A model generated the notes under the pieces. The model made no database searches and was not told the origin of the DNA. It was given only the letters and a program-made list of their open reading frames with translations. A DNA stretch of 64,000 bases from an uncultured Actinomycetes bacterium (GTDB lineage Bacteria > Actinomycetota > Coriobacteriia > Anaerosomatales > PHET01), in contig CAVOYK010000011.1 of the NCBI GenBank assembly GCA_963700665.1, forward strand, positions 122,527 to 186,526, in the 5' to 3' direction. Of this stretch, positions 5,435 to 54,396 are shown piece after piece. The position numbers and the translations under genes are program-made. Position 1 is the first letter of the stretch, and every line of letters begins with the position of its first letter.

Positions 5435-5438
5435 GACG

Positions 5439-7519: not shown

Positions 7520-7535
7520 CTGTCAGACGTCCTTT

Positions 7536-11554: not shown

Positions 11555-11591
11555 GGGCGGCGTCCGAGCGCAGGTACGGTATGCTCGGCGC

Positions 11592-17114: not shown

Positions 17115-17879
17115 ATGTTGCAGGCGATCTCCATCACCGTCCGGGAGGGGTTCGAGGCCGCTTTGGTGATCGGCATAATGCTGACCTATGCGGTCAAGAC
17201 AGGTCGGGCGGATCTCACGCGTCCGATCCTGTGGGGGACTGTTGCCGCGCTAGTACTGAGCGTGCTGGCTGCCTTGGGGCTGGGTGCCGTTGGCATCGAG
17301 GCTGAGAACGAGGCCGTCGAAGGCGTCTTGTACCTGGTCGCCGCCGGGTTCGTCTTCTCTATGGTCGTCTGGATGTGGCGAGCAGGCGGCAACCTGCGCG
17401 ACAAGGTCGCGAGTGGCATCGACCGTGCGGCCAGCTCGTCGACCGCCGCCGGCTGGGGTGTTGCGACCATCGCCTTCTTCATGGTCGCCCGCGAGGGCGT
17501 GGAGACCGTGCTGTTCATGTCTGCGAACGCTCTCGACCAAGGCCTCTTGCCGACGCTGATCGGCGGCGCCATCGGTCTCGCACTCGCCTTCGGCCTTGGG
17601 GCGGCGGTCTACTACGGCGCCGCACGTATCGACCTGAAGCTGTTCTTCTCGGCGACGTCGATAGCCCTGCTGCTTCTGGCGACTCGCTTTCTCGGCATAG
17701 GCGTCCTGGAACTCGGTGAGGCCGGCGTCATCGCTCTACCAGAGTTGATTGAAGAAGGTCTCGAACTGCTCGAGGAAGGCGCCTTGGCAACCATCGTGAG
17801 CGTGGCTGTCGTCGGTCTGCCGTTGGGGGCCGTGGGATGGTCGCTCATCCACGGCCGGTCGGCCAGTCCGGCGGTCTAG
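17115..17879 (+). CDS. FTR1/EfeU-family high-affinity iron permease
   Basis: Intact 254-aa polytopic ORF with the two family REXXE motifs (VREGFEAALV and AREGVETVLF). AAAGGAG lies upstream of the ATG. Confidence 0.85.
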   Translation: MLQAISITVREGFEAALVIGIMLTYAVKTGRADLTRPILWGTVAALVLSVLAALGLGAVGIEAENEAVEGVLYLVAAGFVFSMVVWMWRAGGNLRDKVASGIDRAASSSTAAGWGVATIAFFMVAREGVETVLFMSANALDQGLLPTLIGGAIGLALAFGLGAAVYYGAARIDLKLFFSATSIALLLLATRFLGIGVLELGEAGVIALPELIEEGLELLEEGALATIVSVAVVGLPLGAVGWSLIHGRSASPAV

Positions 17880-17983: not shown

Positions 17984-18010
17984 GCGGGAGAGGGGTTCAC
18001 CCTCTCCCGC
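17984..18010. terminator. Strong hairpin between the FTR1 gene and the 3' end of tRNA-Arg
   Basis: GCGGGAGAGGG (17984-17994) pairs with CCCTCTCCCGC (18000-18010) around a 5-nt loop. There is no clear U-tract on either strand. Confidence 0.4.
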
Positions 18011-18023
18011 CTGCGGTTGTGCG

Positions 18024-18099
18024 TGGTGCCCCCGGCACGATTCGAACGTGCGACACCAGGTTTAGGAAACCTGTGCTCTATCCCCTGAGCTACGAGGGC
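18024..18099 (-). tRNA. tRNA-Arg(CCU): tRNA-Arg, anticodon CCU
   Basis: The reverse complement folds as a cloverleaf. Acceptor stem GCCCUCG/CGGGGGC, D arm GCUC-AGGGGAUA-GAGC, anticodon arm CAGGU-UUCCUAA-ACCUG. T arm GCACG-UUCGAAU-CGUGC, with an encoded CCA. Length 76 nt. Confidence 0.9.
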
Positions 18100-18247
18100 G
18101 TTTGACCTTGTTTCCGCTGGTAAGAGGCTCAAGAACTTGCCCGGCAGAAGGTGAAGCACCGGTCTTCGTGTTCGTTTGGCACCTGTGTGGCACCTGAGCA
18201 TCTTGTTTCACCAGAGTCGGAAGCGCTGTCAATGGTACCAACAACGC

Positions 18248-18565
18248 CTACGAAGCGCTCCTCGACCGGCGACTTGGGAAAGCGATGACGACAGCGTCAG
18301 TTGGCCCGTCGCCCTCCCGCACGACGTACTTGGCGATTGTCGCCGACGCACGCTCGTGATCCGTCTTCAGGACATGGGCATACGTCCTCCAGAGCAGGTC
18401 GCCGCTCTTGTCACTATGGCCCATCATCTGCGCGACCTTCTTCGGGTTGATCCCGTCCGAGAGCAGTACCGTCGCGAACGTGTGCCTGATGGAGTGCGCC
18501 GTGAACCCTTCGACTCCGAGCTCCTTCGTGATGGGCCGCAGAACACGCGACCCGAAGTTGCTCAT
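18248..18565 (-). pseudogene. C-terminal fragment of a tyrosine recombinase (phage-type integrase)
   Basis: Only ~105 codons remain. They carry the box II residues HSIRHTFATVLL...VAQMMGHSD...TYAHV (H-x-x-R, H, Y). The N-terminal two thirds of a normal integrase are missing, because the next gene starts at 18688. Confidence 0.7.
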
Positions 18566-18687
18566 ATTGGAGCGGGCGACCCGGCGTCGTGGCGTGCGAA
18601 AGCTGAGTCAATCGGGAATACCGCAATCAGTGCATGGCGCCGTACGGGAGGGGTTCCGCATATGACCGATGACGGAAGGGGCGACTG

Positions 18688-20034
18688 GTGGATTCTCTGG
18701 TGATCTGGCTGCAAGCGCTTGTGGTGCTCGGCGCAATCGTCATGGGCGTGCGGATGGGGGGCATGGGCCTCGGCATCTGGGGCGCCGTTGGCGTCTTCGT
18801 TCTGGTGTTCGTATTCAACCTGGCTCCGGGCGCGTTGCCCGGTTCCGCGATGCTCATCATCCTTGCTGTGATCACCGCCGCAAGCGCCATGCAGGCGGCG
18901 GGCGGTATTGACTGGCTGGTGCAGATCGCGGCCAAGATAATCCGGAAGCGGCCCAAGTCCATCACGCTCATCGCGCCGCTCGTGAGCTACGCGTTTACAG
19001 TGGGAGCCGGAACGAGCAACATCTTCTTCCCGCTGATTCCCGTTATCTACGAGGTCTCCTACGACAACGGTATCCGCCCGGAGCGGCCGCTCGGCCTCTC
19101 GGTGATCGCGACCGGCCTGGGTATCACCTCCTCACCCGTCTCGGCCGCGATGGCCGCGATGATTGCGCTCGTTGCAGTCGAAGGTGCCGAGCTGAACCAA
19201 ATCCTGCTCATAACCATCCCTTCATCGATCATCGCGATCGTTGTGGCTGCGTTTGTGTCGATGAGGCTTGGCAAGGAACTCAAGGACGACCCCATCTATC
19301 AGCAGCGGCTCGCCGAGGGTACGGTGCCGCCGCCGAACACAAGTGCATCTGAGACGGCGCAGGCAGAGCTTCCCCCCGGGGCTGCCCGGTCGGCATACAT
19401 CTTCCTTGCCGGTGTGATCTTCGTCATCCTGCTCGGTGCGTTCTCGGGACTCAAGCCTATGTTGCCAAGTGGTGAGGGTGGAGCACTTGTCCCGCTGGAC
19501 ATGACGACAGCAATCCAGTTGACGATGTTCGTGGTCGCGCTCCTGATTCTGCTGTTCTGCAATACGAAGGTCTCGGAGATCTACAATCAGCCGACTTTCC
19601 AGGCGGGCCTGACTGCCGTCATCGCCCTTTTCGGAATCGCATGGCTCGCGAATACGTTCATCGAGGCGCACCTCGAAGCCATCGTGGCGGTTCTGGGGGA
19701 TGCCGTCGCAGCCGTACCACTGGCTTTCGCGCTCGCGATCTTCATTGTTGCGGCACTCACGACAAGCCAGTCAGCCACCACGAACACGGTGGTACCGATA
19801 GGGCTCGCCCTTGGAACCCTCGGGGTGGGACCCATCATCGCGATGTGGCAGGCGCTCGCGGGCGTCTACTTCCTGCCCGCGAACGGCAATCAGCTCGCGT
19901 GTGTCGCGCAGGACCTAACGGGCTCGACGAAGATCGGCAAGTACGTTGTCAACCACTCGTTCATGGTTCCGTTGCTTGTGTGCACAGCCGTATCGGTGCT
20001 CGCCGGCCTGGCTATTCAGGCCGTTGTCTTCTAG
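18688..20034 (+). CDS. dcuA: Anaerobic C4-dicarboxylate transporter, DcuA/DcuB family
   Basis: Intact 448-aa ORF with a GTG start after GGAAGGGG. It is collinear with my recollection of E. coli DcuA: GGMGLGIWGAVGV..., ILAVITAASAMQAAGGIDWLV, RKRPKSITLIAPLVSYAFTVGAGTSNI, and RPERPLGLSVIATGLGITSSPVSAA. Confidence 0.8.
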   Translation: MDSLVIWLQALVVLGAIVMGVRMGGMGLGIWGAVGVFVLVFVFNLAPGALPGSAMLIILAVITAASAMQAAGGIDWLVQIAAKIIRKRPKSITLIAPLVSYAFTVGAGTSNIFFPLIPVIYEVSYDNGIRPERPLGLSVIATGLGITSSPVSAAMAAMIALVAVEGAELNQILLITIPSSIIAIVVAAFVSMRLGKELKDDPIYQQRLAEGTVPPPNTSASETAQAELPPGAARSAYIFLAGVIFVILLGAFSGLKPMLPSGEGGALVPLDMTTAIQLTMFVVALLILLFCNTKVSEIYNQPTFQAGLTAVIALFGIAWLANTFIEAHLEAIVAVLGDAVAAVPLAFALAIFIVAALTTSQSATTNTVVPIGLALGTLGVGPIIAMWQALAGVYFLPANGNQLACVAQDLTGSTKIGKYVVNHSFMVPLLVCTAVSVLAGLAIQAVVF

Positions 20035-20061
20035 GCAGATCGTTTCTCGGAAGGGGTCCTG

Positions 20062-21405
20062 ATGGAGCTTGAAGGGATTCAGACAAAGGTCACAGCCATG
20101 ATGCCGGAGATCATGGACGAGCTCGGCGTGCTCGTCAGCCACGCGTCGTGCGCGTTTCCCGGGTTCCCGGCCGAGCCGGTCGATGCGGCGCGAGCGCAGG
20201 TTATCAACATGCTTGCGAATGCAGGATTCGAGGCGGGCGAACTCGACCTTGAGGGCGGCGGATATCCCGCTGTGTGGGGAGAGATCCCCGCGCCCGAAGG
20301 CGCACCTACCGTTCTGCTCTACGGTCACTACGATGTCCAGCCGGCCCCGATGGAGCAAGGCTGGACGAGCGACCCCTTTGTGCCCGAGTGGCGTGACGGA
20401 CGGCTGTACGGTCGCGGCGCGGCCGACGACAAGAGCGGGGTCGCCATCCATGCAGGCACCCTACGCGTCTTTGAGGGGCGCCCGCCTGTGGGCGTCAAGG
20501 TCATCATCGAAGGCGAGGAGGAGACGCTCTCGAAGCTCGAGGCGTATGTCGAGAAGCATCCAGATCGCTTCAAGGCCGATGTGATGATCATCGCCGACAT
20601 GGGCAACATCACGTGCGGCGACCCGGTTCTGACGACGATGCTGCGCGGTCATGTTCAGTGCATCGTGGAAGTCCAGACCGTTGACCACCCACTCCATTCC
20701 GGTGTCTTTGGCGGGCCGGCGCCGGATGCTTTCGTTGCGCTCATCCGTCTGCTGAATTCCCTGTGGGACGAGCGGGGCAACACGGTCGTCCCTGGCCTTC
20801 ATAAGTTCGACTGGCCCGGTGCGGAGTATCCGGAACCGCTGTATCGCCAGATGGCCGGCATGCTCGACGGCGTCGAGATCGTCGGGGACGGCACCGTAGC
20901 CTCAAAGCTGTGGTCTAAGCCGAACGCGACTGTCATCGGGATCGATGGCCCGCCCTCGATTGCGGATGCCGGGAATGTGCTCATGCCGAAAGCGTCCGCC
21001 AAGGTGGCGCTACGTATTGCTCCGGGTGCCGACCCCGAAGCCGAGATCGCTGCTCTGATGGAATACCTCAAGGCGAACGCGCCTTGGGGAGTGAAGGTCG
21101 AGGTGACCCGAGTCAAGGCATCGGATGCTTTTCTCGCGCCAAAGGGCGGGCCGGCGATGGATGCCGCCGCTGAGGCACTCTCTGCGGCATATGGAAAGGA
21201 AACGTCGGAAGTCGGAAGCGGTGGGTCGATACCGCTGCTTGAAACGCTCGCGAAGGCGTCTCCGGGTGCCGAATTCATCCTGCTCGGCGCCGAAGATGCG
21301 CCCGCGAACATACACGGGGCGAACGAGAGCGTACATCCGGACGAGATCGAGCGGATGATAGTCGCGCAGGCGCTTCTGATCGACCGACTCGCCAAGACGC
21401 GGTAG
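20062..21405 (+). CDS. M20-family dipeptidase / metallohydrolase
   Basis: Intact 447-aa ORF with LLYGHYDVQPA, GRGAADDKSG and IIEGEEETLS metal/catalytic blocks. It starts 27 nt after dcuA. Confidence 0.8.
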   Translation: MELEGIQTKVTAMMPEIMDELGVLVSHASCAFPGFPAEPVDAARAQVINMLANAGFEAGELDLEGGGYPAVWGEIPAPEGAPTVLLYGHYDVQPAPMEQGWTSDPFVPEWRDGRLYGRGAADDKSGVAIHAGTLRVFEGRPPVGVKVIIEGEEETLSKLEAYVEKHPDRFKADVMIIADMGNITCGDPVLTTMLRGHVQCIVEVQTVDHPLHSGVFGGPAPDAFVALIRLLNSLWDERGNTVVPGLHKFDWPGAEYPEPLYRQMAGMLDGVEIVGDGTVASKLWSKPNATVIGIDGPPSIADAGNVLMPKASAKVALRIAPGADPEAEIAALMEYLKANAPWGVKVEVTRVKASDAFLAPKGGPAMDAAAEALSAAYGKETSEVGSGGSIPLLETLAKASPGAEFILLGAEDAPANIHGANESVHPDEIERMIVAQALLIDRLAKTR

Positions 21406-21750
21406 CCGGATTTCACGAACCGGACGCACTTTGAGCTCAAGGAGCTCTGGGTCTATTTCGGAATCGGATGCAGTGGCCCGATAGGGTCCCGAAGCATCCA
21501 GACCGATTAGATGGGGAGAGAACGGACTCACACATGCACTGGTCTGTTGCATAGGTCCCAGTTCGTCCGCTACTAGCTGGTGAAACGTGGTCCCGGTGCT
21601 CCTGAGAAGGAGGCCGGGACCACATGCACTTGGCGTGGACCGTAACTGCTTTCGGAGTCTTGGGGGTGAAACGCGATTCACCCTGGTTAGGACAGCCGCG
21701 GTAGCCACCCGGACTCGTCGGGAATAGGTCATGAATAGGCCGAAGCCCGA

Positions 21751-22131
21751 ATGGGGGGCGACGCGGGCCAACAGGACGAAGACCTGATGACGAGCAAGGG
21801 GCCGCCGATGCCAGACGAGCAAGTCATGTTCGGTCCGGTGACTGCGCCGCCAGTACCGCCTTCGGCAGTGGTGGAGCGACCCGGACTACTGGATCGGCTG
21901 GCCACGGCGCTACGTGGCGGAGTGGCACTTGTGATCGCCCCCTCGGGTCACGGCAAGACCACGTTGTTGAGCTCGTGGGTCGCGAGCCTGCGACAGACAT
22001 CCGATGTCGCTTGGCTTTCGCTACGGTCGGAGCACTGCGACCCGTCGGTGTTCGCCGGGCACCTAGCGCTGACGCTCGGCCCGCTGCTGCCGAGGCCCCG
22101 CGACCACAAGGACAGACATGACGCCAGGTAG
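21751..22131 (+). pseudogene. N-terminal fragment of a MalT/LuxR-type (LAL, STAND NTPase) regulator
   Basis: VERPGLLDRLATALRGGVALVIAPSGHGKTTLLSSWVASL...DVAWLSLRSEHCDP shows a P-loop and the W-L-S-L-D block of LAL N-termini. The ORF ends after 126 codons, whereas family members are several hundred aa longer. Its end overlaps the next gene. Confidence 0.55.
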
Positions 22132-23452
22132 CGCTTCATCGGCTGTGTCCCCGCAAGACGCGGCTGTTTCCTCTGACGACGTCCTGGCGATCAACTTCGT
22201 CGCTGATGCCGGGAAGGTGATGCTCGAATCCAGCTCGTCGGTCAGTGAGGTCGTCGAGAGGATTCGGGAACTCCTGCCCCATGTCGGCCTTGCTGGCTGT
22301 TCGATCGACGCCAACATGAGCTCGCTGATACTGAGCTACTGGCATCCCGGACAGCCGATCCCGCTCACGACGATGCGGGACCTGTTGGTTGCTCGCCCCA
22401 GCCTGGGTCGATTCACCGCCACCGATGCACTGCTCGACAAGGTCGAGAGCGGCGCCATGGCGATCCCCGATGCCAGCGCCCAACTAAGGCAGCTCACGGA
22501 GGCCGAGGAACCGAATCCGCGCCGCAGGGAGGCCGCGATGCTCGTTTCGGTGGCCGGTTGGGTGATGTTCTTGAACGGGTTCGATGCCATCACCGTGCTG
22601 GTCGCCCTCGTGGCCACACTACTGACCTTCCCCGTAGGGCGGCTGGTTCGCAAGCTGGGACTGCCGGATCTGTTCGAGGTGGTGTTGGTTGCGTTGATCG
22701 TCGCCGCGGTTCCGAATCTGCTCGCAGCGTGGGGTGCTCCCGTACTCGTCGGACCGGCGGTCGTGGGCGCGCTGTTCATCTATCTGCCCGGTCGCTCCTT
22801 CGTCTCGGCGGTCATCGATGGACTCGCCAACGCACCGCTGTCCTCGATATCGCGCGGTCTGCAGGCCGTTGTAACAGCGGGCGCGCTGGCAGTCGGGATG
22901 TTGCTCGGCTCGAAGGTTGGGCTTGGGCTCGGGCTGTCCTACGAACCGAACGTTGACGCTACGCCGCTTTTGATATCGATCGCGGGTGCGACTCTGGGCG
23001 TGGCTGGTATTGCAGCCGCGTGGAGCATGCAGCGGCGCCAGTTGCTCCCGACGATCCTCATCGGTGCCGTCGGCTGGTTCGTGGTGGCGCTCGCTCCTGC
23101 TGGTTCGGGCGCGGCTTGGGCGTTGTATGGGGCTGCTGCGGTCGTGGTGGGATTCGCGTCGGGCTTCGCGGCATGGCGACAGGGCGCAACGGCAAGCCTC
23201 TACTCGGGTGTGGCCATCCTCCCCCTCGTTCCCGGCTTCCAGCTCTATGCGGGCATGCTGGCGCTGGCGCAGGGCCGCACCGCTGAGGCGTTGAGTTCAC
23301 TGGGTACGGCGGCGCTCATCTCCTTGGCGATCGCCGTGGGTGTCGCCCTCGGTCTCGCCGTCAGCCGCAACGTGTTCGCCGCGTACAGGACTATCGGTGC
23401 CCGTCTGCCGGTCAAGACAAAGCGGCCGGCAGGCGTAGGGAGAAGACCATGA
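22118..23452 (+). CDS. ThrE-family (threonine/serine exporter-like) membrane protein
   Basis: Intact 444-aa ORF. The N-terminal cytoplasmic region AINFVADAGKVMLESSSSVSEVVERIRELL...SIDANMSSLILSY is followed by ~10 TM helices, as in DUF1212+DUF3815 ThrE-type proteins. Confidence 0.65.
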   Translation: MTPGSASSAVSPQDAAVSSDDVLAINFVADAGKVMLESSSSVSEVVERIRELLPHVGLAGCSIDANMSSLILSYWHPGQPIPLTTMRDLLVARPSLGRFTATDALLDKVESGAMAIPDASAQLRQLTEAEEPNPRRREAAMLVSVAGWVMFLNGFDAITVLVALVATLLTFPVGRLVRKLGLPDLFEVVLVALIVAAVPNLLAAWGAPVLVGPAVVGALFIYLPGRSFVSAVIDGLANAPLSSISRGLQAVVTAGALAVGMLLGSKVGLGLGLSYEPNVDATPLLISIAGATLGVAGIAAAWSMQRRQLLPTILIGAVGWFVVALAPAGSGAAWALYGAAAVVVGFASGFAAWRQGATASLYSGVAILPLVPGFQLYAGMLALAQGRTAEALSSLGTAALISLAIAVGVALGLAVSRNVFAAYRTIGARLPVKTKRPAGVGRRP

Positions 23453-23494
23453 GCAACAGGGGCTTCGGATCGCTGCAGAACATAGGAGGCATGG

Positions 23495-24595
23495 ATGGGT
23501 GACGACGGCACGTCGAACGCCACTCGGTTCTGGCCCAATGGGGTCCCTCGATGGGTCCGCGCCGTGGGCATGTGGGGCTGGATGATCGCAGGCACGGCCG
23601 CTGGTATCTACGCCATCGGATACGTGTTCTCCAGGGCAGCGAGCGTCATGGTCCCGCTCATAGTGGCCGTGGTGATCGGAGTCGTGGCCTACCCGCTCGT
23701 TGTCACACTGCAGAAGTGGAAGATCCCGGCGTGGCTGGGATCAGTCATCGTCTTGTTGCTCTTGTTCGTGATCGTGATCGCGGTGGGATGGATCACGGTC
23801 GCGGGGGTCATCGGCCAGTGGCCCGAGATCACCGCCGGCATCCAAAGCGGCATCACATCACTGGAGCAATCGCTCGCTGCGTTGGGCGCAGGGAGTGGCA
23901 ACGCCCAGTCGATCATCGACAGCATCCAGATGGCGGTCCAAGGTGCTGCTACCTCAGCCACGTCAGGCATTCTCTCGGCGGTGGGATCAGGGATCACGGG
24001 AGTCGTCTCGCTGTTCTTCGGCCTGTTCATCGGCACATTCCTGCTCTACTACGTGCTGAGCGACCTGCCGACGATGGCGAGCTTCGTCGACTCGCATATG
24101 GGCCTTCCGAAGGAGCTTGGCCACGGCGTCGTCGAAGATGCGGCAGCGTCGCTTCGAGGCTACTTCAGGGGCACCACCATCACGGGACTGGCCGTTGCGA
24201 TCGTGATCGGTGTGGGCGTGGCGCTGATGGGGGTGCCGCTCGCGATACCGATAGCGCTCGTCACGTTCCTTACCTGCTACATCCCGTTCTTCGGGGCCAT
24301 CGTGTCCGGCGCGTTCGCATTCCTGATCGCGTTCGGAGACGGCGGATTCGGTGTGGCGGTCGCGGTGCTGGTCCTTGTGCTGGTCGCCCAGAACCTCTTC
24401 CAGACGGTGATCAACGCGAAGGCGATGGGGACCTCGCTGGATCTCCATCCGTTTGTCGTTCTGGTAGTGACGATGCTGGGTGGCATCTTCGCGGGTCTTC
24501 TGGGCGCGGCACTGGCAGCTCCGCTGCTCGCGATGGTTCTGCGAGCCAGTGACCGCGTTCGGCGATACAGCCCTGAGCAGGTGCACAGGAAGTGA
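23495..24595 (+). CDS. AI-2E (PerM/UPF0118) family transporter
   Basis: Intact 366-aa polytopic ORF. AGGAGG lies 4 nt before the ATG. Family-like C-terminal blocks are FLTCYIPFFGAIVSGAFAFLIAF and LHPFVVLVVTMLGGIFAGLLGAALAAPL. Confidence 0.75.
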   Translation: MGDDGTSNATRFWPNGVPRWVRAVGMWGWMIAGTAAGIYAIGYVFSRAASVMVPLIVAVVIGVVAYPLVVTLQKWKIPAWLGSVIVLLLLFVIVIAVGWITVAGVIGQWPEITAGIQSGITSLEQSLAALGAGSGNAQSIIDSIQMAVQGAATSATSGILSAVGSGITGVVSLFFGLFIGTFLLYYVLSDLPTMASFVDSHMGLPKELGHGVVEDAAASLRGYFRGTTITGLAVAIVIGVGVALMGVPLAIPIALVTFLTCYIPFFGAIVSGAFAFLIAFGDGGFGVAVAVLVLVLVAQNLFQTVINAKAMGTSLDLHPFVVLVVTMLGGIFAGLLGAALAAPLLAMVLRASDRVRRYSPEQVHRK

Positions 24596-24643
24596 GCTGC
24601 AGCTGCGAACAAGCGTGAGAGATTCACCGCCTCACTCCTGCTC

Positions 24644-26017
24644 GTGCGGGAACAAGGCCGATCATTGATGGGAGGGTCGGAGCTAGTGGAGAAAGAGAAC
24701 TCCGGGAGCGCCGCTTCGATGTCGGCGCCGGCCGCGTTGTTCATCGGGGTGGGCGCGATGGTTGGTGCGGGCATCTTCGCTCTTCTGGGTCAGGCCGGGG
24801 CAGTCGCAGGTAGCGCCACGTGGCTGTCGTTTCTACTGGCAGGGGTCATCTCGCTGCTCCTCGGCTACTCCTTCGTCAAGTTGGGCATCCGGTACCCATC
24901 CAGGGGCGGCCTTATCGAATTCCTAGCAGTGGAGTACGGATCCGGTCCACTCACAGGTGGGCTCTCCCTTCTGACGCTGCTCGCCGGGATCATCACTCTC
25001 GCGATGGCTGCGCTCACCTTCGGCAGCTACGGGGCGACGCTCATTTCCGGAAGTGACTATGGCCCCCTCCTGGCGAAGGGCCTCGCCATCGGGCTCGTAG
25101 CGATTCTCACGGGAGTCATCGCAGCAGGGAGCGGGGCCATGAACACGGTGCAATCGATCTCCGTGGTCGTTGTCGTCGCAATTCTCGGCGGACTTTCGCT
25201 CATAGGGCTGACCACTATGGATGTCTCAAACCTCGCCCCGGAGACATATCCCCCGCCCTCGACTCTCGTGGCAAGTCTCGGGCTGACCTTTTTCGCGTAC
25301 ACAGGGTTCCAAATCATCGCGAATTCAGTCGAGGATATGGCACAGCCGCGGCGCGATTTGCCGCTCGCCATGTACGGCTCCATCGTCGTGGCAATCATCG
25401 TGTATGCGCTGACTTCGATCATGGTCTTTGGCAACCTGGGTACAGATGAGGTGGTCAAGCAGGCGGATGTCGCCATCGCCGTCGCCGCCCGAGGGGTGAT
25501 CGGGCAGTGGGGCATCGTTCTCTCGGTGATCGCAGCTGCGTTCGCGACGGTATCGACGGTGCTGGCGAATCTCTACTTCGGGCTGAATACGTCCTACTCG
25601 TTGGCTATCGACGGGAGGCTTCCCTCACGGTATGCGCGGCGGGCATGGAAGGGGGCAACTCACGGCTTGGTACTCACGGCCTTGATCGCTGTCGGGATCG
25701 TCGCGTTCCTGGATGTGAACCAGATCGCCTCCGCGGGGAGCATCGTCTACATGGTCGTCTTCTTCATGATCAACGTGGGTCACATGCGCCTGCGCTCCGA
25801 GACCGGCGCGTCACTGAGCATTCTCGCGGTCGGAACGCTCATGCTTGCCGTTGCAGCCATCCCTTTCCTACTTTCCACATGGGAGAACGAACCCGTTGTC
25901 GTCTGGTTCACCGGGGGCTCACTCGTTCTCGCGGTCATGCTCGAAACGTATCTCTTTAGGGTGAGACACCGCCACGTTCCAGCTCCAGACGCTTCACACG
26001 ACCATGCTGAAGGCTGA
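24644..26017 (+). CDS. APC-superfamily amino acid permease
   Basis: Intact 457-aa ORF with about 12 TM helices and the N-terminal signature ALFIGVGAMVGAGIFALLGQAG. The start is uncertain (GTG 24644, ATG 24668 or ATG ~24719). Confidence 0.8.
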   Translation: MREQGRSLMGGSELVEKENSGSAASMSAPAALFIGVGAMVGAGIFALLGQAGAVAGSATWLSFLLAGVISLLLGYSFVKLGIRYPSRGGLIEFLAVEYGSGPLTGGLSLLTLLAGIITLAMAALTFGSYGATLISGSDYGPLLAKGLAIGLVAILTGVIAAGSGAMNTVQSISVVVVVAILGGLSLIGLTTMDVSNLAPETYPPPSTLVASLGLTFFAYTGFQIIANSVEDMAQPRRDLPLAMYGSIVVAIIVYALTSIMVFGNLGTDEVVKQADVAIAVAARGVIGQWGIVLSVIAAAFATVSTVLANLYFGLNTSYSLAIDGRLPSRYARRAWKGATHGLVLTALIAVGIVAFLDVNQIASAGSIVYMVVFFMINVGHMRLRSETGASLSILAVGTLMLAVAAIPFLLSTWENEPVVVWFTGGSLVLAVMLETYLFRVRHRHVPAPDASHDHAEG

Positions 26018-26107
26018 AATGGAGTCGCGACCCAAAGTGGCGACGAAATCTGTATATGAGGATTCGTCCGATCTGGACGGATTCCTGAGACGAGGAGGAC
26101 GAGCTAT

Positions 26108-27610
26108 ATGAGCACGTACGACGTCGCGATCATTGGCGGGCGGGTCATAGACCCGGAGACCGGATTGGACGACATCAGAAATGTCGGCATCGATGGCGGC
26201 AAGATCGGCATCGTCACCGAGGAGCCGATCGAGGGCGTCGAGACCATCGATGCTACTGGGCACGTCGTCTGCCCGGGCTTCATCGACATGCACTTCCACA
26301 ACACCGCCCACCCCTTCGGGCAGAGGTTGGCGCTCTACGACGGCGTGACGACTCCGATGGAACTCGAGTTGGGCGTCTACCCAGTGGAGGAATGGTATGG
26401 CGCTTTGGAGGGCAAGTCGCGGACGAACTATGGTGCCTCGGTCGGCTCTATCCCGATCAGGGAGAGGATCCTCAACCCGGACTTCAGGGAGCTATCAGAG
26501 GGCGATTTCTTGCTCGATGCGCTCGGCAGGGCAAAGGAGTCGCAGACGAGCATGAAGTGGTCAAAGGAGCATGTGACTGCCCAACAGTTGGAGAAGTTCG
26601 AGCGCATGCTGGAAGAAGGCATGCGGCAGAAGGCCATTGGTGTCGGTCACGCAGTGGGATACATGGTGGCCGGTTGCTCACAGCAGGAGTCCGTGGTCGT
26701 GCAGAAGGTGGCCGGCAAATACGGCGTGTCGTGCTTCGTCCATGCGAGGTTCTCCAGTCAGATGGCGCCAACGAGCGGGCTGCTGGCGTTCTTCGAGATG
26801 ATGGCTCCTCAAGAGGTGTTCGGTGGAGGGATCGTCTTCCAGCACATGTCGGCGCAGGCTCTACGCGATACGGTGACTGCTCTCGAACTGTTCGACAGAG
26901 CTCGAGAGAAGGGGATTCAGGTGATCGGCGAGATCTATCCGTATGACTACGGCGCGAGTATCGTGGGCGCCGATTACTTGGTGCCGGACAACTACGGACC
27001 CAATATGGGGCGGGAGTACAAGGACATCATCGAGACCTCCAACTTGACGCCTCTGACCGAGGAGCGATACGAGGAGCTCATGAAGACGAACCCCCTGACG
27101 TCGATCATGTTCTACAACGCCTCTGAAGAGGACGTCCTCGCCGGGCTTACACACCCAGCCTCAGTCGTCGGCAGCGACGCCTTCCCCTATACGGTGCGTG
27201 AGACAGGAGAGATTGCTCTCGATTGGGACGTTCCCGTCGACGCCGTCAATGGTCATCCGAGAGGCGCCGGGACGCACGCACGTGTTCTTGCCTGGACCCG
27301 GGAAGGAAAGCTCGACATCCCGCTCTCACTCGCTGTCTCAAAGATGACCTACTTGATCGCCAAGTATCTTGAGGACAACGGCGTGGCGCAGATGGCGCAG
27401 AAGGGTCGCATCCAGGTGGGCAAGGACGCCGACATCACGATCTTCGATCCGGCCACCGTCAAGGACGAGGCGACCATGAAGGACGGCGCACTCCCATCGA
27501 GCGGGATCCCGTACGTTCTCGTGAACGGAACCGTCATGGTGAGGAACTCCAAGGCGGTGGACAACGCGTTCCCTGGCAAGCCGGTTTGGGGACCTGGGTC
27601 CGTCGCCTGA
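26108..27610 (+). CDS. Metal-dependent amidohydrolase, D-aminoacylase (N-acyl-D-amino-acid deacylase)-like
   Basis: Intact 500-aa ORF. The N-terminus YDVAIIGGRVIDPETG...IDATGHVVCPGFIDMHFH carries the HxH metal motif after a beta-sandwich lead-in, as in D-aminoacylases. Confidence 0.7.
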   Translation: MSTYDVAIIGGRVIDPETGLDDIRNVGIDGGKIGIVTEEPIEGVETIDATGHVVCPGFIDMHFHNTAHPFGQRLALYDGVTTPMELELGVYPVEEWYGALEGKSRTNYGASVGSIPIRERILNPDFRELSEGDFLLDALGRAKESQTSMKWSKEHVTAQQLEKFERMLEEGMRQKAIGVGHAVGYMVAGCSQQESVVVQKVAGKYGVSCFVHARFSSQMAPTSGLLAFFEMMAPQEVFGGGIVFQHMSAQALRDTVTALELFDRAREKGIQVIGEIYPYDYGASIVGADYLVPDNYGPNMGREYKDIIETSNLTPLTEERYEELMKTNPLTSIMFYNASEEDVLAGLTHPASVVGSDAFPYTVRETGEIALDWDVPVDAVNGHPRGAGTHARVLAWTREGKLDIPLSLAVSKMTYLIAKYLEDNGVAQMAQKGRIQVGKDADITIFDPATVKDEATMKDGALPSSGIPYVLVNGTVMVRNSKAVDNAFPGKPVWGPGSVA

Positions 27611-27628
27611 CGTGGGCGGTATGCGCCG

Positions 27629-28672
27629 ATGAGTCGACAGCAAACCAAGATTCCAGTCACGCTCATCGCGGGTTTCCTCGGCGCGGGCAAGACGACCCTG
27701 CTCAACTACATCCTGAGTGAGAATCATGGCCTCCGCGCTGCGGTCCTCGTCAACGATTTCGGTGCCATCAACATCGATGCGAAACTCGTGATCGGCGTTG
27801 AGGGCGAGGCGGTCAGTTTGGCCAACGGATGCATATGCTGCAGCATTCGTGACGATCTTGTGGGCGCCTGTCTGCGACTGCTGGAGAGACCCGATCTGCC
27901 CGACCACATCCTCGTCGAGATGAGCGGAGTGTCGGACCCCGTCCCGGTGTTGAACACCTTCACGGAGACACGGCTTGCGGACGCATTCGCCATCAACAGC
28001 ATCCTGACGGTAGTTGATGCAGATCAGCTGGCCAGACTGGAGGGGAAGGCGGCGCGGCAGGCACGGACTCAGCTCGAGGCAGCCGACATCGTCGTGCTCA
28101 ACAAGATGGACCTCGTGGACCGGGAGCGGCTCGATTCTGTCATGGAGCTCGTGCGCCTGGCGGCACCGGGATCGCGAATCATCGGAGTCGTTGGATGCCG
28201 GGTTCCGTTGGAGTTGGTTTTCGCCGAAGGTGATGTGGTGGCGCATGGGGCACAGTGGGAGGAGCGTCGGTCTACGGAGGACCCATCTCATGACCATCCG
28301 TTCGCCACATGGAGTTGGACGAGCGACCGCCCGCTTTCTCTGATACAGCTGCGATACGTGTTGGGGCAACTGCCCGAGACTGTCTACCGCTGCAAGGGTG
28401 TTGTGCAGCTTGAGGAGATGCCCGTAGCGCGCTATGTCCTGCAGATGGTGGGCAAACGTCACCGCTTGGAGGAATCCGGTTCCTGGGGCGATAAGCATCC
28501 CCAGTCCGAGATCGTCTTGATCGGCGTTCGGGGCGGCTTCGATCCCCAGGAGCTGCAGGACGCCTTCGACGGATGTGTCGGGACGGGAGATGATTCTCGT
28601 TCGCCGGTATTGCGGCTGGTCCGAAAGCTCGCTCCTGAACTGCTCGCGAACAACGTGGCGCGCGATAGCTGA
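27629..28672 (+). CDS. COG0523-family G3E GTPase (CobW/zinc metallochaperone-like)
   Basis: Intact 347-aa ORF with P-loop LIAGFLGAGKTTLLNYIL, metal-binding GCICCS, LNKMDL, and a C-terminal CobW_C-like domain. It starts 18 nt after the amidohydrolase stop. Confidence 0.85.
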   Translation: MSRQQTKIPVTLIAGFLGAGKTTLLNYILSENHGLRAAVLVNDFGAINIDAKLVIGVEGEAVSLANGCICCSIRDDLVGACLRLLERPDLPDHILVEMSGVSDPVPVLNTFTETRLADAFAINSILTVVDADQLARLEGKAARQARTQLEAADIVVLNKMDLVDRERLDSVMELVRLAAPGSRIIGVVGCRVPLELVFAEGDVVAHGAQWEERRSTEDPSHDHPFATWSWTSDRPLSLIQLRYVLGQLPETVYRCKGVVQLEEMPVARYVLQMVGKRHRLEESGSWGDKHPQSEIVLIGVRGGFDPQELQDAFDGCVGTGDDSRSPVLRLVRKLAPELLANNVARDS

Positions 28673-28680
28673 GTCGATTG

Positions 28681-28772
28681 GGAAACAGCCTCCTGTACAC
28701 GTGGCAGGGCAAGGATGCCTCTCTTGCCCCGGTGGTGCTGATGGGCCACCAAGACGTGGTACCAGTGCCGCG
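28681..28772 (+). pseudogene. Short internal fragment of an M20-family peptidase gene (gene scar)
   Basis: GNSLLYTWQGKDASLAPVVLMGHQDVVPVP matches the conserved block around the first metal-binding His of M20 carboxypeptidases. Nothing family-like is present before or after it. Confidence 0.4.
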
Positions 28773-28834
28773 CTACCTCGGGCAAACGCTAGAATCAAGT
28801 CAGCGCCGTGCAAGGCGTCCCCGGGGAGGAACGA

Positions 28835-29911
28835 ATGAGCTCGAAGTTCACCGAGGTTGTGTTCGGCAAGAAGGACAGGCCTCTTCTGTGGTCACTAGTC
28901 GGCATCCTCGTGCTGGCTCTTGCCGTGACCGCCTTTGCGGTTTCGGCGCTTGGGCTCTTGCGCCTGGTCCTGTACGCGATTGCGCCGGTGCTCGTGGTGG
29001 TGGCCACATCGATGCTGCACCACGATCGCTACCGCCAGCTACGAGCTATCAGCTTTGGCTCGATCGCCGCCCTGCTCGGTGCTTTGAGTCTTGTGACCTC
29101 GGGGAGTCCGCTTGTGGCAGGCGCCACTGCGGCGATCGTGTTCGGCGCGGCCACTGCGATGAAGGCGCTTCCCGAGTGGGAGTTCGAATCGGACCTGCTC
29201 TCGCTCTCATTCTTCCTCGGCGTCATAGTCTCCGCGCTCGGAGAGGCACCGCGGGGCGCCGCGCTCAACGTGTTGATCGTGGGCATGGTCGGTGTCGCCG
29301 GGGGCATGGTTGGAGAACTCCTGCGGCTGCTGGTGCTGAAGATACAGGGTACCGCTCGCCCGGCGGCAGGGGAGCTGGCGGGCCGCTCGCTCAGCGATCG
29401 ACTGAGGATCATGACCGACCTCAGGGTCCCGGTGGTTCGCTTCGCGATCGTGCGTGGACTCACGCTCGGAATCGGCGTATCCATTCTGGAGTCGGCTGGG
29501 CCCAACCGGCACGTCGCCTGGGTGCTCGTCGCTGTGTTCGCTGTGATGCGGCCCTTCACGGGCGACACGATGCGCACGGCGATCATGAGGTCGGTGACCA
29601 CGCTTGCCGGCGTGTTGATCGTCGGTCTTGTCGGGACGTTTGCGACAGCTCAGGTGACGCTACTTGTCGGCGTGGTGGCCTTGCTCGTGGGAATTCTGTT
29701 CCTGTTGCGAAGCCCTGTTCCAATTACGGTAGCCAGCGCGATGATCGCGGTAGCCGCTGCCGGCCTCCCCGGGCAGCAGTTCGCCACATGGGCCGTCTAC
29801 AGGTTCGTGGAGACCGTCGTGGGATCTGCGATCGCGCTGATCGTCATCTTCGTGTTCATGCCGCTGCTCGAGCGGATGTTCCCGGCCGAGGTGCCGGCAG
29901 AATCGCCCTGA
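28835..29911 (+). CDS. FUSC/ArAE-like integral membrane protein (tentative)
   Basis: The start is taken at MSSKF (ATG 28835, with GGGAGGA 5 nt upstream). The second half (RFAIVRGLTLGIGVSILE...VAWVLVAVFAVMRPFTGDTMRTAIMRSVTTLAGVLIVGLVG) resembles the FUSC core. Confidence 0.45.
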   Translation: MSSKFTEVVFGKKDRPLLWSLVGILVLALAVTAFAVSALGLLRLVLYAIAPVLVVVATSMLHHDRYRQLRAISFGSIAALLGALSLVTSGSPLVAGATAAIVFGAATAMKALPEWEFESDLLSLSFFLGVIVSALGEAPRGAALNVLIVGMVGVAGGMVGELLRLLVLKIQGTARPAAGELAGRSLSDRLRIMTDLRVPVVRFAIVRGLTLGIGVSILESAGPNRHVAWVLVAVFAVMRPFTGDTMRTAIMRSVTTLAGVLIVGLVGTFATAQVTLLVGVVALLVGILFLLRSPVPITVASAMIAVAAAGLPGQQFATWAVYRFVETVVGSAIALIVIFVFMPLLERMFPAEVPAESP

Positions 29912-30108
29912 CCTTCGGCGAGTCGCGCCCGATCCCCTGAGCCTCGAGCGCATTCCGGTGGCTGTGGTGTCAGTTGGGCGAAGGGGAATGAACAAACCAG
30001 TCGTCGCCCTATTGATGTATCCAGGGCCGCGCTGCCAGGGTCGCCCGTCGGGGCACGCGCAAGAGTGCGTGGATCGGGCGTCGGACACGCGACTAGTCCC
30101 GCCATCAT

Positions 30109-32300
30109 ATGCGTCGAGTAGTGATCGTCAGCAATCGCCTGCCCGTCACGGTGGAGAAGCGCAAAGGCGCGCTGTCGTATCGGGGCAGCGTGGGCGGGGT
30201 CTCCACCGGCCTCCAGTCTCTGCTCGAGGAGAGCAACGGCCTGTGGGTCGGCTGGGCCGAGATTTCGGCTTCGAGAGTCGATGCGGACGAGCGTGCGCAG
30301 ATCGCAGAGCGCCTGCAGGCCGAGCACTCCTCAACGCCGGTGTTCCTCACGAGCGCGGACATCCGCGGCTTCTATCACGGCTTCTCCAACCGCACGATAT
30401 GGCCGCTCTTCCACTACTTCATGCGGTTCGCCGAGTTCGACTCGGCGATGTGGTCGGCCTACCAGCGCGTGAACCGCAAGTACCGCGATGCCGTGCTCGA
30501 GGTCGCGAAGCCCGGCGACATCATCTGGGTGCACGACTACCAGCTCATGCTGTTGCCGCAACTGCTGCGCGAGGCGCTGCCGGACGCCTCGATCGGCTTC
30601 TTCCTCCACATCCCGTTTCCCGCGCTCGAGGTGTTCCGCGTGCTGCCGTGGCGCCGAGAAGTGCTCGCGGGGCTCTTGGGCGCCGATCTTGTCGGCTTCC
30701 ACACCTACGACTACGCGGCCAACTTCCTCGACTCCGTCCAGCACCTTACGAGCTACGAGGTCCAAGGCGAACGCGTGAACGTGGAGGGCCGCCTGTCGGT
30801 CGCCGAGGCGTTCCCGATGGGCATCGACTTCGAGCGGTTCGCGACGATGGCGACCACGCCCAAAGCGACGAGCGAGGCCCAGCGCATCGTCTCGCAGTCG
30901 GGTGGGCGCAAGCTCGTGCTCTCGATCGACCGGCTCGACTACACCAAGGGCATCCCCGAGCGCCTCCGAGCCTTCTGCGCGTTTCTGGAGCGCTATCCCC
31001 GAGTGGCGGGGCAAGGTGACGATGCTTGCCGTCGCCGTCCCATCTCGGACGCGTGTGGAGCAGTATCGCCAGCTCAAGAGGGAGGTCGACGGGCTCGTAG
31101 GCTCGATCAACGGGCAGTTCGCCACGATGGACTGGACGCCCATCCGCTATCTGTACCAGTCGCTAGCCCGGAGTCGCTTGCGGCGGCGTACCGAGCAGCG
31201 GACGTTGCGCTCGTCACACCACTGCGCGACGGGATGAACCTCATCGCCAAGGAGTACTTGGCGGCACGCATCGATGGTACCGGCGTGCTGGTTCTCTCGG
31301 AGCTGGCGGGCGCCGCGCGGGAGCTGGGCGAGGCGGTCGTGGTCAACCCGTTCGACCAAGAGTCGATCGTCGACGGGCTGCACGAGGCCTTGACGATGCC
31401 CGAGGAGGAGCAGCGGACCCACAACACCGCGATGAGAGCGCGACTGTCGCGCTACACGGTGAGCCGGTGGGGCGCCGACTTCGTCGAGTCGCTGGAGAAC
31501 GTGAAGATCCAGCAGCTCCGATCCGTCGAGTACGTGCTCGACGATCTCCAGCGCGAGCCGCATCGTCGAGGCCTACCGATCCAGCAAGAGCCGCTGCCTC
31601 GTGCTCGACTACGACGGCACGCTGACAGGCTTCGCTCCCAAGCCGGGCCTCGCCACCCCGACACCCAAGCTGCAAGAGACCCTCACGCGGCTCGGCTCGA
31701 AGCCGGGCAACCGGGTCGCGATCGTCTCGGGACGCGACCGTGAGACGCTTGAGGGATGGTTCGGCGACCTGCCCTTGCACCTGATCGCCGAGCACGGCGT
31801 GTGGGTCAGAGACCTCGGCGAAGCATGGCGTCTCACAGAACCCGTTGACGACGCGTGGAAGCCCAGGCTGCGACCCGTCCTGGAGATGTTCGTCGACCGC
31901 ACCGCCGGTTCGCTGCTCGAGGAGAAGGACCTACTCGCTCGTGTGGCACTACCGCATGGTCGAGCCCGAGCTCGCCGAGGTGCGGCTTCAGGAGCTGCGC
32001 GAGACGCTGGGCACGCAGGTGAGCAATCTGGGTCTCGCGGTGATGGAAGGCAACAAGGTACTCGAGGTCAAGCCTGCCGGCGTCAACAAGGGGCGAGCCG
32101 CGTACTCGTACCTGAACGAGGAGCCGCTCGACTTCGCGCTCGTCGCCGGCGACGACCGTACCGACGAGGACCTCTTCGAGGTCGCCCCTGAGACCGCATG
32201 GACCATCAAGGTAGGACGTGGCCCGACTCGTGCGCGCCTGTCGGTCGAGAGCCACAGAGACATACTGAATCTGCTCGGCGAACTCGCGGAGGTTGACTGA
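30109..32300 (+). CDS. otsA: Bifunctional trehalose-6-phosphate synthase/phosphatase (OtsA-OtsB fusion); about 4 frame breaks
   Basis: GT20 blocks are present: [76 protein letters not shown]. These are followed, without an intervening stop once frames are followed, by HAD phosphatase blocks: [40 protein letters not shown]. Breaks lie near 31010, 31165, 31600 and 31935. Confidence 0.85.
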
Positions 32301-33511
32301 TGAAGCGACTTGAGGACTACCGGGGAATCGTGGCCGACGACGTGCTCGCGGACCTGCACCATCGGGCGGCGAGCCTCTACGACCGCCACGTCGTCCACGT
32401 GAACTCGACGGCACAGGGTGGTGGTGTCGCCGAGATGCTCTACACCCTCATCCCGCTGATGAACGACGTCGGCGTGGACTGCGGATGGCGCGTTCTGGTG
32501 GGCAGCGACGACTTCTTCAACGTCACCAAGAAGCTCCACAACGGCCTGCAGGGCGAAAGCATCGCACTCACCGCGCAGAAGAAGCGCATCTACTCCCAGA
32601 CGAGTGAGGACTTCTGCCAGTACACCCACGTCAGGAATCACGACGCGATCATCGTGCACGATCCGCAGCCTCTGCCGATGATCAAGTTCCAGAAGAAGCG
32701 GCAGCCGTGGGTGTGGCGCTGCCACATCGATCTGACCGAGCCGGACCCGCGGCTCTGGGAGTACCTCAAGGGCTACATTCTGCGCTACGACATGGTCATC
32801 GTCAGCCACGACGACTACCTTCACCCCGACCTGCCCGTTCCACAGGTGGTGATCAATCCGGCGATCGATCCGCTCAACCAGAAGAACATCAGCCTGCCGG
32901 GGGCGACGATCACCAAGTACATGGAGCGCCACGGCGTGGTGCTGGACAAACCGCTGATCACGCAGGTGTCGCGCTTCGACAAGTGGAAGGACCCGGAGGG
33001 GGTCATCGAGGTCTTCAAGCGGGTGCGCAAGCAAGTCGACTGTCGGCTGGTTCTGGCCGGCAACTTCGCCACCGACGACCCCGAGGGCTACGAGATCTTC
33101 CAGCGTGTCCAGTCGAAGGCGGCCAAGCTCATCGAGAGTGGGGACGTGATCATCCTTCTGGGCGCGAGCGACATCGTCATCAACGCCCTGCAGCGCGTCT
33201 CCACCGTGGTTCTGCAGAAGTCGCTTCGCGAGGGGTTCGGCCTCACGGTCGCCGAGGCGTCGTGGAAGGGCGTGCCGGTCGTGGCCTCGGCGGTTGGCGG
33301 CATCCCGCTGCAGATCATCGACGGCCACACCGGCTTCCTCGTAGACCCTCGGGACTACGACCAGTGCGCCGAGCGCATCGCGAGCATCGTGCAGGACCCC
33401 GATTTGGCTGCGGAGATGGGTGCGAACGGCAAGGAGCATGTCCGAGAGAACTTCCTGATAACCCGTTTGCTGGGGCACTACTTGGCGCTTCTCGGCGATT
33501 TGCTGGGCTGA
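32300..33511 (+). CDS. treT: Trehalose glycosyltransferring synthase TreT-like GT4 glycosyltransferase
   Basis: Intact 403-aa ORF. It is collinear with my recollection of archaeal TreT: RLEDYRGIV, VHVNSTAQGGGVAEML, FFNVTKKLHNGLQG, VHDPQPLPMI, PWVWRCHIDL, ITQVSRFDKWKDP, DDPEG, REGFGLTVAEASWKGVPVV and GGIPLQIIDGHTGFLV. The ATG overlaps the otsAB stop (TGATG). Confidence 0.75.
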   Translation: MKRLEDYRGIVADDVLADLHHRAASLYDRHVVHVNSTAQGGGVAEMLYTLIPLMNDVGVDCGWRVLVGSDDFFNVTKKLHNGLQGESIALTAQKKRIYSQTSEDFCQYTHVRNHDAIIVHDPQPLPMIKFQKKRQPWVWRCHIDLTEPDPRLWEYLKGYILRYDMVIVSHDDYLHPDLPVPQVVINPAIDPLNQKNISLPGATITKYMERHGVVLDKPLITQVSRFDKWKDPEGVIEVFKRVRKQVDCRLVLAGNFATDDPEGYEIFQRVQSKAAKLIESGDVIILLGASDIVINALQRVSTVVLQKSLREGFGLTVAEASWKGVPVVASAVGGIPLQIIDGHTGFLVDPRDYDQCAERIASIVQDPDLAAEMGANGKEHVRENFLITRLLGHYLALLGDLLG

Positions 33512-39441: not shown

Positions 39442-39448
39442 CTCGGTC

Positions 39449-54159: not shown

Positions 54160-54396
54160 GGCGTCCCCCTTTGCCGAGGCTGCAGAAGAGAGGCTCGAAA
54201 GTGCCTCTTCTATCACTCTACCCACTTCCGCTGGCGGCGCGTTTCGTCTGGGAGAGGCCGGAAGATCAAGTGGTGCGCTGTCCGACGAGGACGTCTTCTC
54301 GGCCGAGGGTACTATCCAATGGGCAGTCGGTGGTCACATGGAGCAAGAGGCGCCCGAAAGACCACCACGAACGGGTGTGATGTCGAGAGGGGACCA

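Follow-up and report, generated by a model that had tools for sequence, protein, structure and literature searches.

A probable mosaic of accessory DNA around a tRNA-Arg(CCU) gene in an uncultured Actinomycetes bacterium

Gene content next to tRNA-Arg(CCU)

We analyzed a 64,000-nt stretch of an uncultured Actinomycetes bacterium (contig CAVOYK010000011.1, positions 122,527 to 186,526, assembly GCA_963700665.1), hereafter the window, in which a block of lower-G+C DNA with transporter and hydrolase genes lies against a tRNA-Arg(CCU) gene and the remnant of a tyrosine integrase. A preliminary description, made from the sequence alone, had interpreted the 11.9 kb ending at 29.95 kb as a single decayed genomic island bracketed by a short repeat. 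The genes, composition, repeats and junctions of the window were examined and compared with loci recovered from metagenomes, which are labeled L0xx or L1xx throughout.

The tRNA-Arg(CCU) gene is intact and, in agreement with its earlier placement beside the block, occupies 18024-18099 on the minus strand according to both ARAGORN and Rfam (RF00005, 63 bits), with its 5' end facing the block. Past the integrase remnant, eight full-length genes follow on the plus strand, and near full-length family matches for all eight uphold the gene list given previously. The spacers between them measure 18-135 nt, except for 712 nt between the second gene and the third. The first gene (18688-20034) encodes a DcuA/DcuB-type transporter for C4-dicarboxylates (aspartate, fumarate, succinate) that matches PF03605 over positions 2-365 of 368 (E=4e-128) and reaches 470 bits with the full-length NCBIfam model PRK09412, for which the cut-off is 369. 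After 27 nt comes an M20 metallopeptidase of the dipeptidase-like PRK07907 subfamily (20062-21405; 524 bits, cut-off 300). It is followed by a ThrE-family membrane protein resembling threonine/serine exporters (22118-23452; PF06738, PF12821), an AI-2E family transporter (23495-24595; PF01594, E=4e-43) and an amino acid permease of the APC superfamily (24644-26017; PF13520). The sixth gene (26108-27610) encodes an amidohydrolase of the PRK09061 subfamily, with a match to Amidohydro_3 and a score of 392 bits against a cut-off of 340 over positions 23-512 of 517; it is a candidate for a protein resembling D-aminoacylases (N-acyl-D-amino-acid deacylases). Its stop codon is separated by 18 nt from a gene for a COG0523 (CobW/ZigA-like) metallochaperone GTPase (27629-28672; PF02492, PF07683), denoted cobW in the gene orders below. 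Because this protein falls under every NCBIfam equivalog cut-off (162 vs 332 for CobW, 151 vs 600 for ZigA, and likewise for the YjiA-like model), we do not assign it to CobW or ZigA proper. The last of the eight encodes a FUSC_2-domain membrane protein (28808-29911; PF13515), which is a sporadic accessory gene. A single homologue (72%) was found, in an unrelated context, and it is of no use as an anchor for the right flank.

Two gene scars had also been reported within the block, and both are present. One is the 126-codon N-terminal stub of a MalT/LAL-type regulator (21751-22131, plus strand), which matches MalT residues 9-82 (E=1.8e-10) and, weakly, AAA_16, with a score far below the cut-off of the NCBIfam MalT model. 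This stub overlaps the start of the ThrE gene by 14 nt and is found in the related locus L088 as well. The other, at about 28693-28770 on the plus strand, is readable in translation as the M20-like peptide VVLMGHQDVVPVP and represents an internal piece of a different M20 peptidase (LYTWQGKDASLAPVVLMGHQDVVPVP). The idea that this scar behind cobW is a copy of the block's own M20 gene, which would have favored a simple tandem duplication, was rejected, as the two have no nucleotide similarity.

An integrase relic and its junction with the gene cluster

The preliminary description had placed a 105-codon C-terminal remnant of a tyrosine recombinase next to the tRNA, and the protein family search bears this out. 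The open reading frame (ORF) at 18248-18565 on the minus strand matches the C-terminal third of the Phage_integrase domain (PF00589 positions 112-169 of 172, E=1.2e-10), and the complete stump covers 18248-18583 with a 1-nt indel near 18567, leaving the last 105-112 codons of the integrase. Its catalytic motifs can still be read, namely box II HSIRH (HxxR), GH and the catalytic tyrosine in RTYAHV. Judging from its sequence, the remnant cannot be active because the region of the box I arginine has been deleted. The N-terminal two-thirds of the integrase were not found anywhere in the window. The idea that the block was inserted into the integrase gene was therefore rejected: without an N-terminal fragment in the window there was no simple insertion, and the remainder of the gene was lost.

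The origin of the stump is illuminated by locus L102 (contig Ga0101944_10083746), which encodes a longer integrase and is 91% identical in nucleotide sequence to window positions 18023-18583. The stump corresponds to residues 128-232 of the L102 protein, with 95% amino acid identity. Since the L102 flank on the 3' side of the tRNA is unrelated to that of the window, the piece consisting of tRNA, spacer and integrase is common to different hosts. The spacer itself (18100-18247, minus strand) lies within the 91% identity region and is thus part of the integrase element. Within it, a 9-nt sequence, TGGCACCTG, is repeated directly at 18177-18185 and 18188-18196 (11 nt apart). Analogous repeat arrays lie beside the tRNA in L093 and L101, and the repeats are possibly arm-type sites. 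The spacer also contains an extended -10-like motif, TGGTACCAT, at 18232-18240 on the minus strand; this motif recurs upstream of tRNA-Arg(CCU) in several loci, at varying distances. Among viral contigs there was no match to the integrase or to the 5' half of the tRNA, the best integrase match in a phage database was a generic phage integrase with 34% identity, and a plasmid database contained no match to the whole block.

The similarity to L102 breaks off at 18583, and from 18588 onward the window aligns with two other loci, L087 and L090, which places a deletion or recombination junction at 18584-18587. Directly behind this junction, a relic of 31 nt (18588-18618, plus strand) preserves the 3' end of a cobW gene, namely its last 19 coding nucleotides, stop codon included, and a further 12 nt. 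These 31 nt form the left member of an imperfect direct repeat, whose right copy (28654-28684, plus strand; 27/31 identical) lies at the end of the block's own cobW gene, where the homology to L087 and L090 also ends. In both of those loci a full cobW gene continues through the 31-nt sequence directly into DcuA-M20. Positions 18588 to 28684 thus delimit a 10.1-kb unit that the window has in common with L087 and L090. On the evidence of these homology limits, the left edge of the gene block appears to be a deletion junction.

Related clusters in other contigs

L087, L088 and L090 are three contigs of one ENA sample (ERZ25039600; contig_24992 to contig_24994). L088 has the gene order of the window at 92-95% nucleotide identity, with an additional 646-nt DUF1269 gene at window position 21656/21657. 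L090 carries AI-2E-APC-amidohydrolase-cobW-DcuA-M20 (96-97%), and L087 carries a divergent ThrE gene followed by APC-amidohydrolase-cobW-DcuA-M20 (96.7-98.5%). The differences are mainly substitutions, and we therefore regard the contigs as distinct variants. The DUF1269 segment appears to have been deleted from the window, because DUF1269 is also found near ThrE in the more distant locus L089 (70% amino acid identity), together with APC. None of the four versions of the cluster separates the amidohydrolase gene from its COG0523 neighbor. Homology between the window and its sister contigs ends at 28684, and neither the M20 scar nor the FUSC gene beyond this point is shared.

The context of the cluster differs among these loci. 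In L087 there is no integrase or tRNA within 9.8 kb upstream of the cluster, the cluster is 4 points lower in G+C than the contig's own flank, and the nearby homologue of the FTR1-family iron permease that lies on the 3' side of the tRNA in the window is inverted and only 78% identical, in contrast to the 96.7-98.5% identity of the cluster. The APC permease illustrates how quickly similarity declines outside this group: the proteins are 99% identical in the three ERZ25039600 contigs, and the next relatives are at 78-80%, 70% and 68%. A more distant relative, L091 (80% amino acid identity), carries ThrE-M20-APC-amidohydrolase, and its contig has a G+C content of 61% throughout. That one cluster recurs in different arrangements and surroundings at 92-98.5% nucleotide identity fits exchanged accessory DNA. 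Any transfer was probably within the lineage, since the nearest relatives, at 68-80% amino acid identity and with the same gene partners, seem to come from one and the same broad lineage. A horizontal origin from a relative of about 61% G+C would be in keeping with our reading.

The closed cobW-to-DcuA junctions of L087 and L090 might instead indicate that the 10.1-kb unit is a mobile or amplifiable cassette, with the 31-bp direct repeats at the cobW end serving as its recombination site and the junctions representing a circle or tandem array. The window contains exactly one unit plus 31 nt, a single circular order accommodates nearly all gene adjacencies of the window, L088 and L090, and contigs break at unit boundaries. 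L087 breaks the circular order, however, as its divergent ThrE gene runs directly into APC without AI-2E, an arrangement that suits segmental duplication better. The 31-mer occurs in only four expected places among all loci and is not a recurrent site, the repeat is imperfect, and no recombinase is encoded in the unit. An older duplication and one deletion account for the same facts, and we consider the cassette very unlikely. The way in which L087 enters the unit makes a segmental duplication, rather than a tandem array or circle, the likelier source of the cobW-to-DcuA junction. A bolder version is that the cassette has no integrase of its own, circularizes or amplifies at a 31-bp site over the COG0523 stop codon, and is moved in trans by the integrases that target the 5' half of tRNA-Arg(CCU). 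If true, this would explain both why one unit plus 31 nt abuts an integrase stump and why closed cobW-to-DcuA junctions exist; we put it forward as a long shot.

Nucleotide composition

The block had been said to contain 55% and 60% G+C by hand count, against 75% in the flanks. These figures are not reproduced by computation, which gives 62.3% for 18100-29950 and 67.4% for the rest of the window. The contrast is smaller than claimed and nevertheless significant, and the block is the lowest 11.85-kb stretch of the window. G+C at third codon positions (GC3) is 0.767 for genes of the block and 0.838 for the remaining genes (Mann-Whitney p=3.6e-6), and the tetranucleotide distance in 4-kb windows is 0.022-0.031 inside 17-30 kb and 0.010-0.020 outside. 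The host reference in these comparisons is the other 52 kb of the window. The low-G+C zone begins at about 17.0 kb, on the far side of the tRNA, and therefore takes in the FTR1 gene too.

These values bear on the possibility that the cluster is native and vertically inherited, that its low G+C stems from membrane proteins or expression, and that the integrase stump is a mere neighbor. ThrE, M20, APC and the amidohydrolase do stay together in relatives at 68-80% amino acid identity, the identity of the APC permease falls off in a manner resembling that of FTR1, and the difference in G+C is just 5 points. Against this, the shift is seen in third codon positions and tetranucleotides, beyond the positions driven by amino acid content, and the soluble enzymes (M20, amidohydrolase and COG0523) are shifted as much as the transporters. 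In L087, too, the cluster has a lower G+C content than its flank, and several different arrangements of it exist at more than 92% identity. A native origin of this kind therefore seems quite improbable to us.

Search for a distal attachment site

The preliminary description had bracketed the block with an 11-nt identity, ATCCCCTGAGC, one copy of which lies within the tRNA. This 11-mer does occur exactly twice in the window (18080 and 29932), and the match extends to 19/23 or 22/28, pairing 29927-29954 on the plus strand with tRNA positions 18075-18102. As a bracketing attachment (att) repeat, on the other hand, it does not rise above chance. No other non-self match to the tRNA region scores higher, yet the score was equaled in 15% of Markov shuffles, and a further exact 11-mer match to the tRNA region is found at 30750. 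An nhmmer profile of the tRNA 5' half with its native upstream flank, built from six loci, gave no match in the masked window at a threshold as permissive as E<=100. Altogether, an ungapped scan, shuffles, gapped alignment and the nhmmer profile revealed no distal att site above chance in the window. We treat the bracketing repeat as coincidental, and the earlier caveat that it might be so agrees with both the chance-level score and the null profile search.

This result weighs on the original proposal, in which 18.1-29.95 kb arrived in one step as a tRNA-integrated island that has since decayed, with the repeat at 29.93 kb as its distal att site and the eight genes as cargo. Several observations are in its favor. 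The integrase stump lies beside the tRNA, the compositional shift covers about the same interval, integration on the 5' side of a tRNA is validated by L093 (see below) and Islander, and the repeat is the top non-self match, located in an intergenic spacer at a compositional edge. The candidate tRNA fragment (29932-29954) even has the orientation and side expected of a 5' fragment. In addition to its chance-level score, however, the match is limited to the D-arm and acceptor part of the tRNA, with nothing in the anticodon-proximal 10 nt of the 38-nt core seen in L093. The junction between integrase and block is a truncation joined to a cobW relic, the common unit stops at 28684 with FUSC distributed separately, and the cluster in L087 has no integrase or tRNA nearby. 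Measured by the criteria of Islander, the block has an intact tRNA at one end and the supporting feature of deviant composition; it has neither an intact integrase gene within it nor, given the shuffles and the profile search, a displaced tRNA end fragment at its other end. A single island is in our view unlikely.

Integration on the 5' side of tRNA-Arg(CCU)

The preliminary description had cautioned that the block lies on the 5' side of the tRNA, which is not the classical geometry of integration. This is indeed a minority arrangement, but it is no objection, because elements on the 5' side are real at this tRNA. The identical 76-nt tRNA-Arg(CCU) was found in 11 metagenome loci, and three of these (L093, L101 and L102) contain three different integrases, all on the 5' side of the tRNA and on the same strand. 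The integrases of L093 and L101 do not exceed 33% identity with either the window stump or the L102 integrase. L093 has its integrase enclosed by the full tRNA on one side and, on the other, by an exact 38-nt copy reaching from the anticodon loop as far as the 5' end of the tRNA, after which native-type upstream flank follows. In the Islander collection, 159 of 3919 islands have a 5' tDNA fragment (PMC4383910). The configuration of L093 and this class of islands establish the non-classical geometry as genuine for this tRNA. L093 (1-1964; Ga0194063_10031786) is also of interest in its own right as a minimal element of 1.85 kb whose sole content is a 466-aa tyrosine integrase, a clean example of 5'-fragment integration.

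The Islander islands with 5' fragments, a minority class with the 'A' crossover in the anticodon loop, resemble the window in that tyrosine integrase and intact tRNA are immediate neighbors and the element occupies the tRNA's 5' side. The window differs in that only the tRNA-proximal end is left, with the integrase cut to its last third, and in that the distal end has no tRNA fragment and the adjacent genes are not demonstrable as cargo.

On the other side of the tRNA, just past its 3' end, a G+C-rich hairpin at 17984-18010 on the minus strand (GCGGGAGAGGG-GTTCA-CCCTCTCCCGC) is kept beside the identical tRNA in L097, L098 and L101. It is likely the native terminator together with conserved native flank. 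A scan of the window for promoters and terminators gave counts at background level.

Other loci with the same tRNA display further kinds of neighbor. In L096 (112-1475; ORXB01004016.1), which is 44.7% G+C, the ORF of a large serine recombinase overlaps the 3' end of the identical 76-nt tRNA by about 65 nt, that is, a recombinase of a different type on the opposite side of the tRNA. The presence of an identical copy in this low-G+C locus means that the tRNA sequence is common to very different genomes. L095 (5718-7220; Ga0123353_10036400) has an HsdM methylase of a type I restriction-modification (R-M) system in lower-G+C DNA at the tRNA 5' side, which is another kind of accessory cargo. L099 has PRTase and Big_9 genes on the tRNA 3' side, as in the window, and its positions 11431-14401 contain an inverted orthologue of the AcrB-like gene of the window (46358-49040) about 70 nt from the tRNA 5' end. 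Comparison of the two gene orders suggests a rearrangement of about 30 kb between L099 and the window, with one breakpoint at the tRNA.

Neighboring genes and assembly quality

The FTR1-family iron permease gene on the tRNA 3' side (17115-17879, plus strand; PF03239, E=2e-31) has a GC3 of 0.80 and a G+C content of 64.8%. Its homologues (75-89% identity) lie in unrelated contexts of the metal-resistance type and cannot serve as synteny anchors. FTR1 is probably another accessory piece of the mosaic. FTR1 genes of the window's lineage are found repeatedly beside tRNAs and metal-resistance genes; in L086 (9693-10762), for example, a 78% homologue lies directly downstream of tRNA-Phe(GAA). Upstream of an 84% homologue, in L081 (5877-8943) and L082 (676-3742), an integrase is followed by Multi_ubiq, DUF6791/ThiF and BubE genes, an operon of the ubiquitin-like conjugation type linked to phage defence.

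Elsewhere in the window, an actinobacterial-type fhaA-fhaB-pstP-rodA-pbpA-pknAB cluster and a tRNA-Leu are present, and an Rfam search of the window found two tRNAs only. At 30109-33511, otsA, an otsB gene split between frames and the gene of a TreT-type trehalose synthase form a trehalose cluster. In species-representative genomes, the best matches of OtsA are only 54% identical and scattered over phyla, and thus carry no synteny information. At 5111-8006 there is a cbb3-type oxidase cluster, in which a FixO domain is fused to multiple cytochrome c domains and a COX1 fragment is present, with a DsbD_2 protein and a heavy-metal P-type ATPase adjoining it. Such a cluster is uncommon in an actinobacterial-type genome.

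The window derives from an error-prone long-read assembly. Several flank genes are frame-split or truncated, at roughly 1 break per 7 kb: otsB (31601-32300), rodA/pbpA (37949-40057), the AcrB-like gene (46397-49082), hutH (54319-55943), a ccoN fragment (7536-8006) and a ZIP fragment (33896-34420). Because essential genes are affected, these breaks look like long-read indel errors rather than pseudogenes. The earlier observation that no gene of the block has a frame break is correct in that we count zero breaks in 12 kb, but at the break rate of the flanks such an outcome is expected about 20% of the time, and the absence of breaks is therefore uninformative.

The same error rate raises the question of whether the contig is chimeric at 18.58 kb, at 28.68 kb or at both, with the cluster acting as a multi-copy, multi-strain repeat during assembly. 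Many indel-type frame breaks are typical of uncorrected long reads, and the consecutively numbered sister contigs end at these same points. The left junction, in contrast to misjoins induced by repeats, connects sequences that have no common repeat, and the compositional transition on the left starts before the junction, at FTR1. We think that an assembly artefact is most improbable.

Discussion

We conclude that the interval of about 17-30 kb is probably no single island but a mosaic of accessory DNA that occupies a variable site around tRNA-Arg(CCU), and assign this reading a probability of roughly 0.58. What stands of the decayed genomic island originally described is a decayed integrative element at the tRNA, a distinct composition and the scars of genes; what does not stand is one 11.9-kb island bounded by repeats.

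The order of events that we infer has four steps. First, an element with a tyrosine integrase would have integrated on the 5' side of the tRNA and supplied a new tRNA 5' half; its tRNA-proximal end would survive at 18100-18583 as the repeat-bearing spacer and the last 105-112 codons of the integrase. Second, a deletion or illegitimate recombination at 18584-18587 would have removed the rest of the integrase and whatever followed, so that the stump became joined to the last 19 nt of a cobW copy formerly located ahead of DcuA. Third, the lower-G+C cluster of 10.1 kb (18588-28684) would circulate in closely related populations, having earlier been reshuffled by duplication and deletion. Fourth, the scar of another M20 gene and the sporadic FUSC gene would have come to lie beyond the cluster, with FTR1, the scar and FUSC each having a separate history.

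Several points weigh against this mosaic. Both junctions in the window (18584-18588 and 28684) are provisional, being read from this one contig. Among the recovered loci we found no close relative sharing the window's own flanks, and hence no empty site is available for comparison. The sister contigs come from one long-read metagenome assembly, have consecutive numbers and end at repeat boundaries, and their arrangements could in part result from the resolution of the assembly graph. The FTR1 copy of L087 may be a paralogue, which would weaken the argument from discordant identities. Expression level or gene function, and not foreign origin, could account for part of the lower GC3. Finally, the integrase element could have carried the cluster as cargo until an internal deletion occurred.

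The cluster invites comparison with metabolic or fitness islands and other strain-variable clusters. Like these, it has deviant G+C and tetranucleotide composition, encodes transporters and hydrolases rather than core functions, and exhibits a polymorphic arrangement among near-identical relatives, with scars of neighboring genes. It differs from them in having neither mobility genes of its own nor defined ends.

From the gene families, the tight spacing and the partial conservation in the 80% relative, we infer that the cluster may serve the scavenging of amino acid derivatives. DcuA and the APC permease would import C4-dicarboxylates or aspartate and amino acids, free or conjugated; cleavage of the imported substrates would fall to the M20 dipeptidase and the PRK09061 amidohydrolase, and the ThrE and AI-2E proteins would export the products. 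The PRK09061 subfamily groups with D-glutamate and D-aspartate deacylases. The amidohydrolase resembles the N-acyl-D-amino-acid deacylases in passing the PRK09061 cut-off over nearly its full length, and differs from a named member in that NCBIfam calls the model only 'amidohydrolase family protein'. The neighboring COG0523 GTPase would deliver metal to the amidohydrolase. COG0523 metallochaperone genes are reportedly paired with genes for metal-dependent enzymes, with ZigA and the nitrile hydratase activator among the cases described. The window conforms to this pattern in having a COG0523 gene 18 nt past a gene of the metal-dependent amidohydrolase superfamily, and differs in that its protein is, by score, a member of no characterized subfamily.

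Overall, this is accessory DNA of an ordinary, strain-variable kind at a tRNA used for integration, and it leaves the current understanding of genomic islands unchanged. For annotation, an integrase relic and a separately evolving accessory cluster should be recorded, and not one island with att ends. The locus provides a documented example, in an uncultured lineage of actinobacterial type, of the uncommon use of the 5' side of a tRNA by integrases, with the same tRNA sequence targeted by at least three unrelated integrases. The amidohydrolase-COG0523 pair, together with DcuA, the APC permease and M20, is a candidate uptake and hydrolysis system for acylated or D-amino acids and dipeptides.

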